DNA of 64,000 nt from Vulcanimicrobiota bacterium (GTDB lineage Bacteria; Vulcanimicrobiota; Vulcanimicrobiia; Eremiobacterales; Eremiobacteraceae). The DNA is taken from contig CAWETU010000001.1 in assembly GCA_963812135.1 (NCBI GenBank), positions 320,001-384,000 of the forward strand, in the 5' to 3' direction. The notes beneath the pieces are model-generated. The model searched no databases and was not told where the DNA came from. It worked only from the letters and a program-made list of their open reading frames with translations. Position numbers and translations under genes: made by a program. Shown here one piece after another: positions 25,222 to 29,003 of the stretch (its first letter is position 1; the number at the start of each line of letters is the position of its first letter).

Positions 25222-25536
25222 ATGCATTTTATCGCTTTGTTGACGCTGCTCCAGGGTGAGAACACCAGCAACAACATGCCCGGCGCCGGGGCCGCCTTTG
25301 GCGCCTTTATGGCCGCCTACGCTATCTTCGTGATCATCATCTTGATCATCAGCCTTGTCATCAACTGGCGGATCGCCAGCAAGGCCGGCTATCCGGGCGC
25401 GTATAGCCTGCTCATGCTGATCCCGCTCGTGAACATCGTCATCATATTGATTTTCGCGTTCACCGAATGGCCGGTCGAGCGCGAGTTGAAAGCGCTGCGC
25501 GGCGGCGCCGGCAGGCCCATGACTCCGATCACCTGA
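25222..25536 (+). CDS. Small membrane protein
   Basis: Two to three TM segments with KAGYPG...LLMLIPLVN...EWP; GGAGG RBS. Confidence 0.75.
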   Translation: MHFIALLTLLQGENTSNNMPGAGAAFGAFMAAYAIFVIIILIISLVINWRIASKAGYPGAYSLLMLIPLVNIVIILIFAFTEWPVERELKALRGGAGRPMTPIT

Positions 25537-25566
25537 TCGAATCAGCAACGCTCGCGAGCTACGAAG

Positions 25567-25598
25567 AAACCCGCGCCGTCAGACCGCGCGGGTTTTTT
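25567..25598 (+). terminator. Intrinsic terminator
   Basis: AAACCCGCGC/GCGCGGGTTT stem plus T-run. Confidence 0.7.
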
Positions 25599-26179
25599 CC
25601 ATATGCTCGGTGTGCCCGTGGCGGCGCCGGTACGCGCGCGCTTTCGTGCGGTTGCCGCATACGCTCATCGAGCACCACGTGCCGGACCGGTTTTTCGTTT
25701 CGTCGTAAAACGCCCATAGGCAGCTATCGGCGGGGCAAGCCTTGAGCCTCGCCCACGAACCTTCGGCCATCGCGTCGTGCACGGTTGCGATGATCCGCCC
25801 AAGCGCGCCGTCGACGCCGGGAGCGCGCGACTCGAGTTTGGCCGTGCCCTCGGGGCCGAAGCACATCCCGAGCTGAGCGCTGCGCGCCGCGCGGTTGAGG
25901 GTTTCGAGCGCAGCCCGGATCCGGCGGCTCGCCGTTGTTGGCGAGCGTGAGCCGGCGAAGCGCCTCGCGGACGGCCGTCGCCTGCCCGACGTCGCTGGTT
26001 GAGACGGGTGCTGACCGGTCGAGCAGGCCGACGCCCGAGAGCCAGCCGCGCAAGCCGGCTGGGGTGGCTATCTCGTCAGTGCCGTGCTCGAGTTCGGCGG
26101 TGTTGATGAAGCCCTGGACAAGCGCAAGATCGCCGGGTGCCGGTTTGCTTCCCAGGTACTTCGCGAGGACGGTCTTCAC
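25579..26179 (-). CDS. ABATE/CGNR zinc-finger transcriptional regulator (+1 frameshift ~25915)
   Basis: N-terminal FINT ABATE region; C-terminal RLKAC...C...WCSMSVCGNR. Confidence 0.87.
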
Positions 26180-26185
26180 GGCGCT

Positions 26186-26291
26186 AGTATACTGTGTTAA
26201 GCGGTTATTAAGCAAGGGTTTCGTCCCGCAAAATAGGTGTGGGAAATAACTTTCTAAACATATTGACAGGTTATTCTCAGCGTACTATGAT
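26186..26291. promoter_or_regulatory. Divergent sigma70 promoters with an inverted-repeat operator
   Basis: Minus strand: TTGCTT-18-TATACT, 6 nt before the GTG at 26179. Plus strand: TTGACA (26263)-17-TATGAT (26286). AATAAC-N19-GTTATT (26245-26275) straddles the -35. Confidence 0.7.
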
Positions 26292-26336
26292 GTGTGTGCA
26301 GAGCAAGCAAACTGATCCTCGAAAGGCAGGGCCACC

Positions 26337-26468
26337 ATGGACCGGAATTCGCACCTCATCGGAATCGCACACGGCGATTACGAGCTCCCCACGACGCGCA
26401 CGGAACTGGTGCGCCTCCCCAAAGACTTCTTCAACACGATTTTCGGCGGTTGGGGCGTCCGGATCTGA
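26337..26468 (+). CDS. 43-aa microprotein (paralog A)
   Basis: MDRNSHLIGIAHGDYELPTTRTELVRLPKDFFNTIFGGWGVRI; GAAAGG RBS; consensus promoter upstream; similar to 27613-27753. Confidence 0.72.
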   Translation: MDRNSHLIGIAHGDYELPTTRTELVRLPKDFFNTIFGGWGVRI

Positions 26469-26533
26469 ACGATTAACAAGCGTTAAGCAGCGCGACGAAG
26501 GAGAGCCTTCGGGCACGACGCTAAGCGAACCAC

Positions 26534-27475
26534 ATGAGAATTCAACGAACGACTGCGACGGCGCTTAGCGCCGTCGTTTTTTTCACATTGCTCGCTGCGG
26601 TTCCAACCCGCCCTTCAGCTGCTGCCAGCGCCGATCCGGTGATTGCGGCCGCCGGCGATATCGCGTGCGACCTGCTTCCATCGGCGAAGCCTGAGGCCGA
26701 CGACGGCGGGCCGAACGTCTGCCACATGGGTGCCACCGCCAAGCTTATCGCCGGGCTGCATCCCGCCGCTGTGCTGACGTTGGGCGACGAGCAGTACGCG
26801 GACGGCTCGCTCGACCAATTCAAAAATGGCTACGAGAAGACGTGGGGCGCGTTCAAGAGCATCACCCGTCCGGCGCCCGGCAACCACGAGTATCACACGC
26901 CCGGCGCCGCAGGCTACTTCGAGTATTTCGGCGCCTCCGCCGGGGACCCGGCCAAGGGATACTACAGTTTCGACCTTGGCGGCTGGCATCTGATCGCGCT
27001 CAACGCGAACTGCAAGCAGGCTGGCGGTTGCGGGGCCGATTCGCCCGAGGTCCAATGGCTCGCGCACGATCTGGCCGGGCACCACGCGGCTTGCACGCTC
27101 GCATATTGGCACCAGCCGCGCTTCTCGTCGGGACCGCACCACAGCGACCCGACCTACGACGCGTTCTGGCGCGCGTTGTACGCCGCGCACACCGACCTCG
27201 TGCTCAACGGGCACGATCACGACTACGAGCGCTTCTCGCCCCAATCCCCCGACGCGAAACCAGACCCGTCGCTCGGCATCATGGAGATCGTGGCCGGCAC
27301 CGGCGGGCGCAGCCACTATAAGATAGGAAACATCGAGCCGAACAGCGTCGTCAGCAACGGCGTAACGTACGGCGTTTTGGCGATCACCCTACACCCGCAC
27401 GGTTTCGACTGGCGCTTCATCCCGGAGCCCGGGTCCACGTTCGCCGACTCCGGTTCCCAGGCGTGCCACGGCTGA
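26534..27475 (+). CDS. Secreted calcineurin-like metallophosphoesterase
   Basis: Signal peptide; AAGDIA, LGD, GNHEY, HQP and GHDHDYER. Confidence 0.88.
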   Translation: MRIQRTTATALSAVVFFTLLAAVPTRPSAAASADPVIAAAGDIACDLLPSAKPEADDGGPNVCHMGATAKLIAGLHPAAVLTLGDEQYADGSLDQFKNGYEKTWGAFKSITRPAPGNHEYHTPGAAGYFEYFGASAGDPAKGYYSFDLGGWHLIALNANCKQAGGCGADSPEVQWLAHDLAGHHAACTLAYWHQPRFSSGPHHSDPTYDAFWRALYAAHTDLVLNGHDHDYERFSPQSPDAKPDPSLGIMEIVAGTGGRSHYKIGNIEPNSVVSNGVTYGVLAITLHPHGFDWRFIPEPGSTFADSGSQACHG

Positions 27476-27612
27476 GGCGTTTCTCCGTACCGGGACGGAG
27501 CCAATCCCCGTGCTGGTACCGATTTGCCCAGAGCCCCAAAACCGTACCATAAGGTCAGCGAAGGCAGTGCAAGCGCCTCGCCCACACACTAAAGGAAAGG
27601 ACGCTGATCGAA

Positions 27613-27753
27613 ATGGACGCCAAGAAAGTCGACTACACGCTTGAGGACGACGCCGACCAGGAGAACGAGCTTTTGGATTCACGCTCCACACTCGTGCGGG
27701 TCCGCCGCGGTCCTGACACGTCGATCTTCCGGGGCTGGGGCCCGAAACTCTAA
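27613..27753 (+). CDS. 46-aa microprotein (paralog B)
   Basis: MDAKKVDYTLEDDADQENELLDSRSTLVRVRRGPDTSIFRGWGPKL; GAAAGGA RBS; terminator directly downstream. Confidence 0.72.
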   Translation: MDAKKVDYTLEDDADQENELLDSRSTLVRVRRGPDTSIFRGWGPKL

Positions 27754-27768
27754 TGCGGCCCGCCTGAG

Positions 27769-27796
27769 AGGGCGTCGAGAGACGCCCTTATTTTTT
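27769..27796 (+). terminator. Intrinsic terminator
   Basis: AGGGCGTC-GAGA-GACGCCCT followed by TATTTTTT. Confidence 0.8.
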
Positions 27797-27818
27797 GCGC
27801 TACGCGTTCAGAACGCGG

Positions 27819-29003
27819 CTAGCCCAGCGCGCGCAGGCCGCGCGCCAGGTCGGTTTGGATGTCGGCCACATCCTCGATGCCGACCGACATGCGCAAGAAC
27901 CCGTCGTGCAAGCCCATCGAATCGCGCATCGCTTGGGTCAGCGCGCGATGCGACGACTTGGCTGGATGCGACAACGTCGTATTCGTGCCGCCGAGACTCA
28001 ACACGAGGGTGATGCGCTCGAGTTTGGCGAGCAGCGCGTCGACCGCGGCAGCACCACCGTCGATTTCAAACGAGACCATCGCTCCGAAGCCGCGGTCGAG
28101 CACGCGGCGCGCGATCGCATGATCCGGATGCGAGCTCAGGCCAGGATAATGGACGCGCTTGACCGTGGGCTGTGCTTCGAGCCAGCGAGCCATCACCGAT
28201 GCGTTCTCAGATGCGCGCCGCATCCGCACCTCGAGCGTCTCGATTGAGCGCGTCGTCAGCCACGCGTCGAACGCGCCCGGCACCATCCCGGCGCGCAGCG
28301 CAAAGGTGCGCACGGGCGCGAGCAGATCTGCGCCTCCGGCAAGGGTCCCGATCAGCACGTCGTGGTGCCCGCCCAAGAACTTGGTGCCGCTTTCCATCGC
28401 GAGATGAGCGCCGAGCGCGAGCGGCCGGCAGTGATATGGCGTCGCAAAGGTGTTGTCGACCAGGAGCAGCGCACCGGCACGCTGCGCCGCCTGGGCCAGC
28501 GCGGGGATGTCGGCGACGCGCAGCCGGGGATTTGAGATCGTCTCCACCACCACCAGGCGCGCACCCCCGGCGAGCGCCTCCTCGACGGCCCGCAGCTCGG
28601 TCGAGTCGACATATGCGGTGCGCACGTCGAAGCGCGCAAGGTCGTCGAGCAGCCTGATCGTGTTGCCGTAGAGCTCGCGCGCCGCGACGACGCGATCGCC
28701 GCTGCGCAACAACGTGAAGAACGCGGCGGCGAATGCGGACATGCCGGCAGACATCGCAAGCGCATCTTGCGCATCTTCGAGCGACGCGACAAGCGCCTCG
28801 AGCGCGAGCAGATTCGGGTTGCCGTCGGATCCATAGATGGCGCCCGCGAGGCGACCTTCATAGATCTCATCGACTTCGGTCAGGTTGCGGAAGACCCAGC
28901 CCGCTGACTGGTAGAGAGGAGCGCGCGAGGGCCTATTGGCGGGCGTTTGCGCGTGCGCGCCGTGGACGCTGCGGGTGCCGAAGCCGTCGCCTTCGTGCGT
29001 CAT
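27819..29003 (-). CDS. Cys/Met metabolism PLP enzyme (cystathionine/methionine gamma-lyase family)
   Basis: ETISNP, VDNTFATP, SGTKFLGGHHD, SLGG and LRMSVGIED. Confidence 0.88.
   Translation of the reverse strand: MTHEGDGFGTRSVHGAHAQTPANRPSRAPLYQSAGWVFRNLTEVDEIYEGRLAGAIYGSDGNPNLLALEALVASLEDAQDALAMSAGMSAFAAAFFTLLRSGDRVVAARELYGNTIRLLDDLARFDVRTAYVDSTELRAVEEALAGGARLVVVETISNPRLRVADIPALAQAAQRAGALLLVDNTFATPYHCRPLALGAHLAMESGTKFLGGHHDVLIGTLAGGADLLAPVRTFALRAGMVPGAFDAWLTTRSIETLEVRMRRASENASVMARWLEAQPTVKRVHYPGLSSHPDHAIARRVLDRGFGAMVSFEIDGGAAAVDALLAKLERITLVLSLGGTNTTLSHPAKSSHRALTQAMRDSMGLHDGFLRMSVGIEDVADIQTDLARGLRALG

Follow-up and report, generated by a model that had tools for sequence, protein, structure and literature searches.

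Two short open reading frames (ORFs) in the genome of a Vulcanimicrobiota bacterium, here called sA and sB, are coding genes under purifying selection, and judged by their sequences they are paralogues of one undescribed Eremiobacterota microprotein family, which we name the GWG-tail family. Both lie in a stretch of 64,000 nucleotides (nt) from the family Eremiobacteraceae (NCBI GenBank assembly GCA_963812135.1, contig CAWETU010000001.1, positions 320,001 to 384,000), referred to below as the window. Genes of type A, to which sA belongs, form a conserved two-gene module with a single ABATE/zf-CGNR regulator gene (hereafter CGNR) encoded back to back with them, and genes of type B, represented by sB, are monocistronic and stand behind a different conserved promoter. 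The finding is thus a new microprotein family inside a familiar local layout of regulator and divergent target. As an overall explanation we lean towards two translated genes of one family, of which sA is repressed by the CGNR protein and sB belongs to a STAS-linked regulon, with a peptide that would dock on a protein partner in trans.

A microprotein family with a conserved C-terminal tail

An earlier note on this DNA, made from the letters alone, had pointed to two short ORFs with a shared C-terminal motif, and both are present on the + strand exactly where it placed them (Table 1). Its ungapped alignment running to both C-termini is reproduced by BLASTP (12 of 33 residues identical, E 2e-6 in a single comparison), the motif EL-x3-R-x2-LVR-x8-IF-x-GWG-x2-[IL] had been read correctly in both proteins, and a GAAAGG ribosome-binding site precedes the ATG by 10 nt in sA and by 12 nt in sB. 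Its hairpin after each ORF survives in part, since sB is followed by a canonical terminator but sA by just a stem of 6 base pairs (bp) that lacks a T run, at 26496-26511, and is not kept in the genus. Within their own genome sA and sB are weak reciprocal tblastn matches (E 0.8 and 1.6), so that the pair by itself is marginal and the case for a family rests on relatives.

We searched a set of 61 genomes of the class, comprising the window genome, 31 others of its own family (f1) and 29 of two other families, with a match cut-off of E<=0.01. sA finds matches in 27 of the 31 f1 genomes and in none of the 29 genomes of the two other families, and sB finds matches in 20 of the 31; these f1 tallies include three unpublished genomes (G010, G013, G016), whose sequences are excluded from all subsequent analyses. 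One sB match in a genome of the sister family f2 (E 0.006) lies inside a 494-amino-acid (aa) frame and was taken as chance. In the relatives' genomes the sA query also matches sB orthologues and vice versa, and orthologues of both types occur across several genera in distinct surroundings, which makes the duplication older than the genera and agrees with the earlier view of a diverged pair and not a recent duplication.

The published loci hold 40 distinct ORFs of 41-48 aa, every one of which stops right behind the motif (four first-ATG picks that lay too far upstream were moved by eye), and the stop codon itself varies among TGA, TAA and TAG. A purine-rich, Shine-Dalgarno-like stretch lies 5' of most of the chosen starts. 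Members of the family measure 38-48 aa, have a variable N-terminus and end in ..LVRxPxGADxx[IL]F-x-GWG-x-[RK]-[ILF]-stop; across a 34-row alignment V25, F36, G38, W39 and G40 never change, and the N-terminal half varies freely. A length of 38-48 aa together with F-x-G-W-G-x-[RK]-[ILF] before the stop, which we use to define membership, is found in sA, sB and 38 further distinct published ORFs, and distant members share this tail as well, save for the last-residue variants P0144 and P0155 and a 3-residue extension in P0150.

Selection on both genes is purifying and specific to the reading frame. The pooled ratio of nonsynonymous to synonymous polymorphism (pN/pS) within the genus is 0.15 for sA and 0.28 for sB in the reading frame, whereas the two shifted frames give 1.6-3.1. 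At dS 0.3-1.6 the corresponding Nei-Gojobori ratio of substitution rates (dN/dS) ranges over 0.03-0.17 among sA pairs and 0.09-0.35 among sB pairs; pairs involving the divergent sA of G001 give 0.26-0.67. All four codons are in use at the invariant Gly and Val residues, and the N-terminal halves are likewise selected within the genus. Contigs about 93% identical to the window, from one run of a soil RNA library (share 0.06), extend over 26307-26546, which takes in all of sA, and over 27489-27732, which takes in most of sB. Counted by hand, seven of the eight differences inside sA in this relative's contig fall at third codon positions; stretches that this library leaves without contig cover carry no meaning.

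Beyond the genome set, a profile search of 5.8 billion proteins gave 251 clusters at E<=0.01, named only 'hypothetical protein' and with no Pfam domain on any; their source records are assigned to Candidatus Eremiobacteraceae, Eremiobacteraeota, Tumulicola and, once, an Acidoferrales bacterium. Run without filters against 1.84 billion representatives, a profile search gave 51 matches at E<=1e-3, and the tail-keeping ones read among them are 38-117 aa long with the tail at the extreme C-terminus. The long matches that were inspected (P0121, P0158, P0159) are repeat proteins in which several repeated stretches match the middle of the profile only, and were treated as chance; the sequences of P0143, P0149, P0151, P0154 and P0156, also long, lie outside the inspected set. 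No family in Pfam-A, NCBIfam, PHROGs or PADLOC matches sA or sB at E<=0.1, the 87-sequence family profile has no match in the PDB at E<=10, the ESM Atlas gave no usable match for the family, and the literature searched, with subscription journals outside its coverage, holds no paper describing GWG-tail microproteins. No described family is thus matched in any library searched, but the earlier description of the family as unannotated needs correcting, since several members are already on record as 'hypothetical protein'.

Different promoters and surroundings of sA and sB

The CGNR gene faces sA in the window, with Pfam matches to ABATE (1.1e-11) and zf-CGNR (8.1e-19) on separate ORFs; the frame changes near 25895-25915 and homology carries on in the second frame. 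The orthologue in G005 matches the window gene as two high-scoring segment pairs, and the orthologues of G005 (at L008:1767-2423) and G007 are single ORFs; both domains are present in the window, in two frames, and intact in the orthologues. The conserved Cys, the G-N-R and further columns are invariant in 28 CGNR orthologues. In 24 of the 25 published f1 genomes having type A, the type-A gene is divergent from the sole ABATE/zf-CGNR gene, about 180-330 nt away, and in the 25th (G026) the two genes both lie at contig ends. CGNR is the sole regulator conserved beside sA. One f1 genome, G015, which is 96% complete, has neither a CGNR gene nor any GWG-tail member.

Other genera have the CGNR gene in convergent orientation to a Cys/Met pyridoxal-phosphate enzyme gene adjoining fabF-rnc. 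In the window genus (g1), as tblastn synteny indicates, CGNR and sA have been inverted together as one block, with the metallophosphoesterase gene and sB in between. Synteny ties sA to the CGNR regulator, and to that extent the module proposed in the earlier note, of regulator, both microproteins and metallophosphoesterase, is upheld; the phosphoesterase lies between the small genes in this genus only, and sB has another promoter and is not linked to CGNR in six of six loci that hold type B only. G011 carries a type-A-like copy that is unlinked to its CGNR gene and retains the operator. G007 has, besides its regular gene, a 185-nt duplicate of sA (86% identical; L079 7314-7498 vs L078 6998-7180) that includes the hairpin of the 5' untranslated region (UTR) and the ribosome-binding site, and this duplicate has landed behind another VOC gene, unrelated to the first, where it faces a WYL-domain regulator.

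The upstream regions of type A share a promoter and an inverted repeat. TTGACA[AG]GTTA forms the -35 region in 22 of 24 type-A upstream regions, one of which is cut by a contig end. The loose inverted repeat [AG]T[AC]AC-N18-21-GTTA[CTG] is found in 23 of these 24 (the 24th being the region cut by the contig end), in 13 of 13 f2-type regions and in none of 13 type-B regions. Eight type-A regions have two copies of the repeat, the first over the -35 box and the second over the -10 box. The exact 12-mer spanning -35 box and half-site, TTGACAGGTTAY, occurs once in the genome of 2.79 megabases, and a genome-wide search with it for a wider sA regulon gave four one-mismatch matches, no real excess over the three of a reversed-pattern control.

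To place this repeat in a wider context, TTGACARGTTAC-N18-32-AGGTTAC was scanned for in one genome per species across about 185,000 species, which gave at least 120 stretches; DNA was taken for 80 of them, with taxa as named in the record titles. A CGNR homologue is divergent within 400 nt in 58 of these 80 loci, namely 43 of 45 from Eremiobacterota/Vulcanimicrobiota, 7 of 8 from Actinomycetota and 8 of 27 from elsewhere, the last including Trueperaceae (one), Chloroflexi (one), Myxococcaceae, Sphingomonas, Caulobacterales and Terriglobia. Because the GTAAC/GTTAC sites are tied to a CGNR gene across phyla, we call them the CGNR operator, and we infer from these comparisons that the CGNR protein binds GTAAC-N19/20-GTTAC repeats over the sA promoter and represses it. 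The window genus has a further repeat just 3' of sA (Table 1), whose counterpart in G002 is the perfect palindrome GGTTAACAGCTGTTAACC, and a similar repeat, GTTAAGCGGTTATTAAGC, lies at 26196-26213 near the CGNR start; repeats of this GTTAAGC/GATTAAC type are possibly a second binding site peculiar to the genus.

Type B differs from type A in tail, promoter and surroundings. Its proteins have an acidic N-terminus and end in ..GWGPKL, ..GWGIKL or ..GWGVKI, the six loci with type B only have no CGNR gene nearby, and their neighbours vary. Behind each listed type-B gene lies a G+C-rich hairpin, mostly with a T-rich tail (read by eye, the formal terminator scan covering the window), followed by a gene on the other strand or by none. 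TCCGTA is present in 11 of 13 type-B upstream regions and absent from all 24 of type A and all 13 of f2 type. The full promoter arrangement of sB recurs at one other place in the whole genome, before a 114-aa STAS gene (Pfam 8e-13); this gene, for an anti-sigma antagonist, lies in G000:C5:208981-209417 (L107), at L107:277-618. In G011 a type-B gene stands 70 nt upstream of a STAS gene. From these two loci we infer that sB is co-regulated with a STAS anti-sigma antagonist, possibly via an alternative sigma factor. The stem in the sB 5' UTR appears in other species of the genus as GCGAAGC...GCTTCGC, a compensatory-looking change. In genus g3 the type-B gene has as neighbours a tandem array of two to three genes, each of about 480 aa (L068 4050-7109, L069 7626-12138), with a LuxR/AAA_16 regulator alongside; the four frames scanned in the array have no Pfam match.

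CGNR-facing peptides of other lineages and neighbouring genes

A CGNR gene of the same kind faces other small genes outside f1. The sister family f2 has a CGNR homologue (34-43% identical) that faces, in 13 of 13 cases, an ORF of 44-45 aa behind the same promoter and operator. Its product, MFRDPIRTAPLVSDISDVDLRLKIxRADSALFLESNLRLPHLRV., is found in 12 genomes, always adjoining CGNR, and in 212 public clusters; the gene is monocistronic and is immediately followed by a convergent one. A related f2 subtype reads M.EP.RCVPLVFDYVELRLRMPVRKADDP.. (M.EP.RCVPLVFDY..), and hhalign joins the two f2 subtypes at 96% (E 3.7e-9). Homology between these peptides and sA or sB finds no support, hhalign giving probabilities of just 2.7% (A5) and 0.2% (A7). 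One f2 genome, G037, carries a GWG-type peptide bearing a C-terminal extension. In metagenome-assembled genomes of Actinomycetota the operator and a divergent CGNR gene are followed by two overlapping small ORFs, an Arg-rich one of about 57 aa and a membrane one of about 47 aa (FGRDSRDG.DW), neither of which is in Pfam or NCBIfam. Taken together, the f1, f2 and Actinomycetota loci indicate that microprotein genes are a recurrent feature opposite this CGNR subfamily and that they belong to different families.

The genes behind sA vary with the genus. The metallophosphoesterase gene of the window begins 65 nt 3' of sA, sits between sA and sB in genus g1 only, and is a genus-specific neighbour outside the conserved module. 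A terminator-like hairpin at 26555-26585 (10 pairs, stem 26555-26577, followed by T7) lies within the part that codes for its signal peptide, and the hairpin is not conserved in G005 or G006. A VOC/glyoxalase-fold gene of 125-149 aa stands directly behind sA in 11 of 25 genomes (genera g2, g7, g8 and g9), where its start overlaps the sA stop by 1 nt or follows it after 2 nt, or its frame overlaps the sA 3' end; one such coupled gene lies at L078:6622-6996. Most of these loci continue with a Peptidase_S9 gene and a TonB-dependent-receptor-like gene. A conserved short frame (..QLARQRIEDLRRDGARLRIAD-stop, with variants) lies directly behind the sA orthologue in L013 and L015 (g3) and in L012 and L016 (g4), and this candidate frame shows a loose likeness to the N-terminal part of the Arg-rich ORF from Actinomycetota.

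Table 1. Coordinates of the features discussed, in the window unless a locus number is given.
Feature	Position	Strand	Remarks
ABATE/zf-CGNR regulator gene	25579..26215	-	two frames: ABATE part 25724-26215, zf-CGNR part 25579-25866
Probable CGNR operator	26246..26274	+	degenerate inverted repeat ATAAC-N19-GGTTAT overlapping -35 box; from sequence comparison
sA promoter	26263..26291	+	TTGACA-17 nt-TATGAT; 11/12 consensus matches
sA ribosome-binding site	26321..26326	+	GAAAGG
sA	26337..26468	+	43-aa GWG-tail microprotein, CGNR-linked type A; MDRNS...GGWGVRI
Repeat 3' of sA	26471..26488	+	GATTAAC-N4-GTTAAGC; genus-specific
Secreted calcineurin-like metallophosphoesterase	26534..27475	+	Pfam Metallophos 8.7e-7
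sB promoter region, second type	27481..27550	+	TTCTCCGTACC box 27481-27491, CCGATTTG 27519-27526, GTACCAT 27544-27550
sB 5'-UTR stem	27558..27581	+	GCGAAGG...CCTCGC; read from sequence; no Rfam match
sB ribosome-binding site	27595-27600	+	GAAAGG
sB	27613..27753	+	46-aa GWG-tail microprotein, type B, acidic N-terminus; MDAKK...RGWGPKL
sB intrinsic terminator	27768..27797	+	9-bp stem 27768-27789 and T run; terminator scan of window
f2 microprotein genes	L092 3920-4057; L094 5003-5140; L095-L106; L116, L131, L144 and others	- (L092), + (L094)
Actinomycetota small-ORF loci	L114 1313-1626; L139 840-1156; L176 863-1176; L126, L119, L143

Mode of action and relation to known systems

The free N-terminus, the rigidly conserved C-terminal tail ending at a free carboxylate and the stand-alone members with their own terminators point to a docking peptide that acts in trans. 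On the explanation we lean towards, the CGNR protein would hold sA off through the repeats over its promoter until its signal comes, and sB would belong to another regulon, shared with the STAS anti-sigma antagonist and probably of the partner-switching or stress type. Once made, the peptide would bind a protein partner through the 25 conserved residues at its C-terminus. The best candidate for this partner is the small VOC-fold protein, whose gene shows translational coupling to sA in four other genera, and the duplicate of sA that landed behind a second VOC gene in G007 was counted in favour of this link; a more novel candidate would be the CGNR protein itself. Co-folding of two copies of the CGNR orthologue from G005 (alignment of 28 rows) with the sA orthologue of that genome (43 rows) scored 0.00 in both runs, which counts neither for nor against binding.

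Several observations weigh against this explanation. The binding partner of the peptide is at candidate level, and the VOC gene is missing from the locus in genera g1, g3, g4 and g5; in the window genome it is not beside sA, and homologues lie elsewhere. Disorder of the peptide by itself, which was counted in favour of action in trans, is a low-confidence prediction from an AlphaFold2 monomer (87-row alignment) with a mean predicted local distance difference test (pLDDT) score of 56.6 and a predicted template-modelling (pTM) score of 0.17. The window genus, save G001, has just one degenerate operator copy and misses the second, and the frameshift in the window CGNR gene could reflect either a fault of the assembly or a true loss that left a pseudogene. 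The f2 peptides, with no detectable homology to sA, imply that the regulator needs no GWG-tail peptide in particular. Finally, the RNA support amounts to two contigs of about 93% identity from one library, and such contigs cannot prove transcription, strand or ends.

The peptide might instead act on its own CGNR regulator, as ligand or anti-repressor, in a feedback module where the ABATE domain would sense the microprotein. The pairing of CGNR with sA is near-invariant and moves as a unit through the inversion, regulator and peptide are lost jointly in G015 and, with the analogous peptide of f2, in G043, and peptide families differ among bacterial families, and so does the fast-evolving ABATE domain. 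The ABATE dimer has a large cavity of about 2800 A3 whose ligand is not known, along with a zinc finger that is likely DNA-binding (PMC2954205). A divergent layout of regulator and target nevertheless requires no protein contact, type-B copies and the unlinked G011 copy lie away from CGNR, and the G007 duplicate stands under a WYL regulator, so that we consider this feedback role unlikely. We rate as a little less likely again that sA is a cis-acting leader or ribosome-arrest peptide tuning the gene behind it, be it VOC or, here, the phosphoesterase, although conservation limited to the last 25 or so residues up to the stop, as in TnaC or SecM, the tight sA-VOC junction in four genera and the lack of a terminator of its own for sA in the window genus speak for it. 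Type B and the f2 analogue are monocistronic and are not 5' leaders, sB being followed by a hairpin and the f2 peptide by a convergent gene; in g4 (L070) the next gene lies on the opposite strand, and in g3 (L067) it is just an 80-aa ORF with no Pfam match. The G007 duplicate, moreover, lies downstream of its VOC neighbour, and the N-terminal halves are selected too within the genus.

Precursors of a ribosomally synthesised and post-translationally modified peptide (RiPP) or of a secreted signal, with processing by the S9 peptidase found downstream in some genera or by enzymes from genes elsewhere, would suit the small size and the conserved Trp/Gly-rich C-terminus, as would the Peptidase_S9 and TonB-dependent-receptor-like genes that follow sA/VOC in g2, g5 and g9. 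Neither the 75 neighbouring ORFs of 18 loci nor the six flanking window ORFs yielded a radical-SAM, YcaO, LanM-like, cyclase or export gene in Pfam scans, and with no maturase-type family in those 18 loci the RiPP-like role suggested in the earlier note finds no footing. The peptides have no signal peptide and no recognisable split into leader and core, the conserved part being 25 residues; the peptidase and receptor genes are missing from the locus in g1, g3 and g4, and type B stands alone. We regard such a precursor as improbable, and the monocistronic members and missing maturases weaken the leader and the precursor alike. A reading of the two ORFs as frames open by chance, or as a non-coding RNA element, in favour of which the weak match of sA and sB to each other within the genome could be cited, deserves almost no credence: chance frames are refuted by the conserved ends at the motif in 40 distinct ORFs and by frame-specific purifying selection, and a permissive Rfam search of 25400-28000 gave as its best result a sub-threshold Leu_leader (22 bits against a gathering score of 50) outside both ORFs.

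Among known systems, the window regulator gene has, in two frames, both domains of the Jann_2411-type ABATE + zf-CGNR proteins (PF07336 + PF11706; PDB 3H0N, PMC2954205). That 2009 structure paper (PMC2954205), the sole paper bearing on the function of the family in the literature searched, gives no target or ligand, whereas an operator and a microprotein target are proposed here, for a window copy that is frameshifted. The arrangement resembles TetR/TetA-type modules, in which the regulator stands back to back with its target and inverted repeats lie over the target promoter; unlike those, the target here is neither pump nor enzyme but a 43-aa protein, the regulator has an unrelated fold and DNA-binding domain, and the repression is putative. 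In Bacillus the small stress effector YneA is encoded opposite lexA. The present layout resembles this in setting the gene of a small protein opposite that of a stress-type repressor, with an effector that would act in trans; the sequences are unrelated, and neither LexA nor any membrane or LysM part is present here. The regulatory arrest peptides TnaC and SecM come from short ORFs in which, as in sA, the N-terminus varies, conservation of the C-terminus runs on to the stop codon and a Trp is conserved; unlike them, many GWG-tail members are monocistronic with their own terminator, and again there is no sequence relation. RRNPP-type pheromones differ in that the present peptides have no signal or hydrophobic N-terminus and the regulator is of ABATE/CGNR and not TPR type. 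Pup/UBact-type tags have a C-terminal Gly-Gly-Gln/Glu and a ligase gene nearby, as against the [RK]-[ILF] terminus of the GWG tail and no ligase family among the neighbours scanned.

A more general proposal, which we offer as speculative and hold to be doubtful, is that for the CGNR subfamily with GTAAC-N20-GTTAC operators the conserved and sometimes sole local target in several phyla is a microprotein gene (GWG-tail, MFRDP, or the Arg-rich and membrane pair), the microprotein being the effector, possibly also the feedback ligand, of a widespread stress switch made of zinc-finger regulator and microprotein. The GWG-tail family itself adds an undescribed, strongly selected microprotein family of hundreds of clusters, which the searches made so far place in Eremiobacterota alone, a soil phylum that is largely uncultured. 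Through it the large, unstudied ABATE/CGNR regulator family gains a candidate operator and a conserved target class, and the occurrence of a single operator/promoter cassette before unrelated microproteins in different lineages bears on how small proteins originate and are exchanged.

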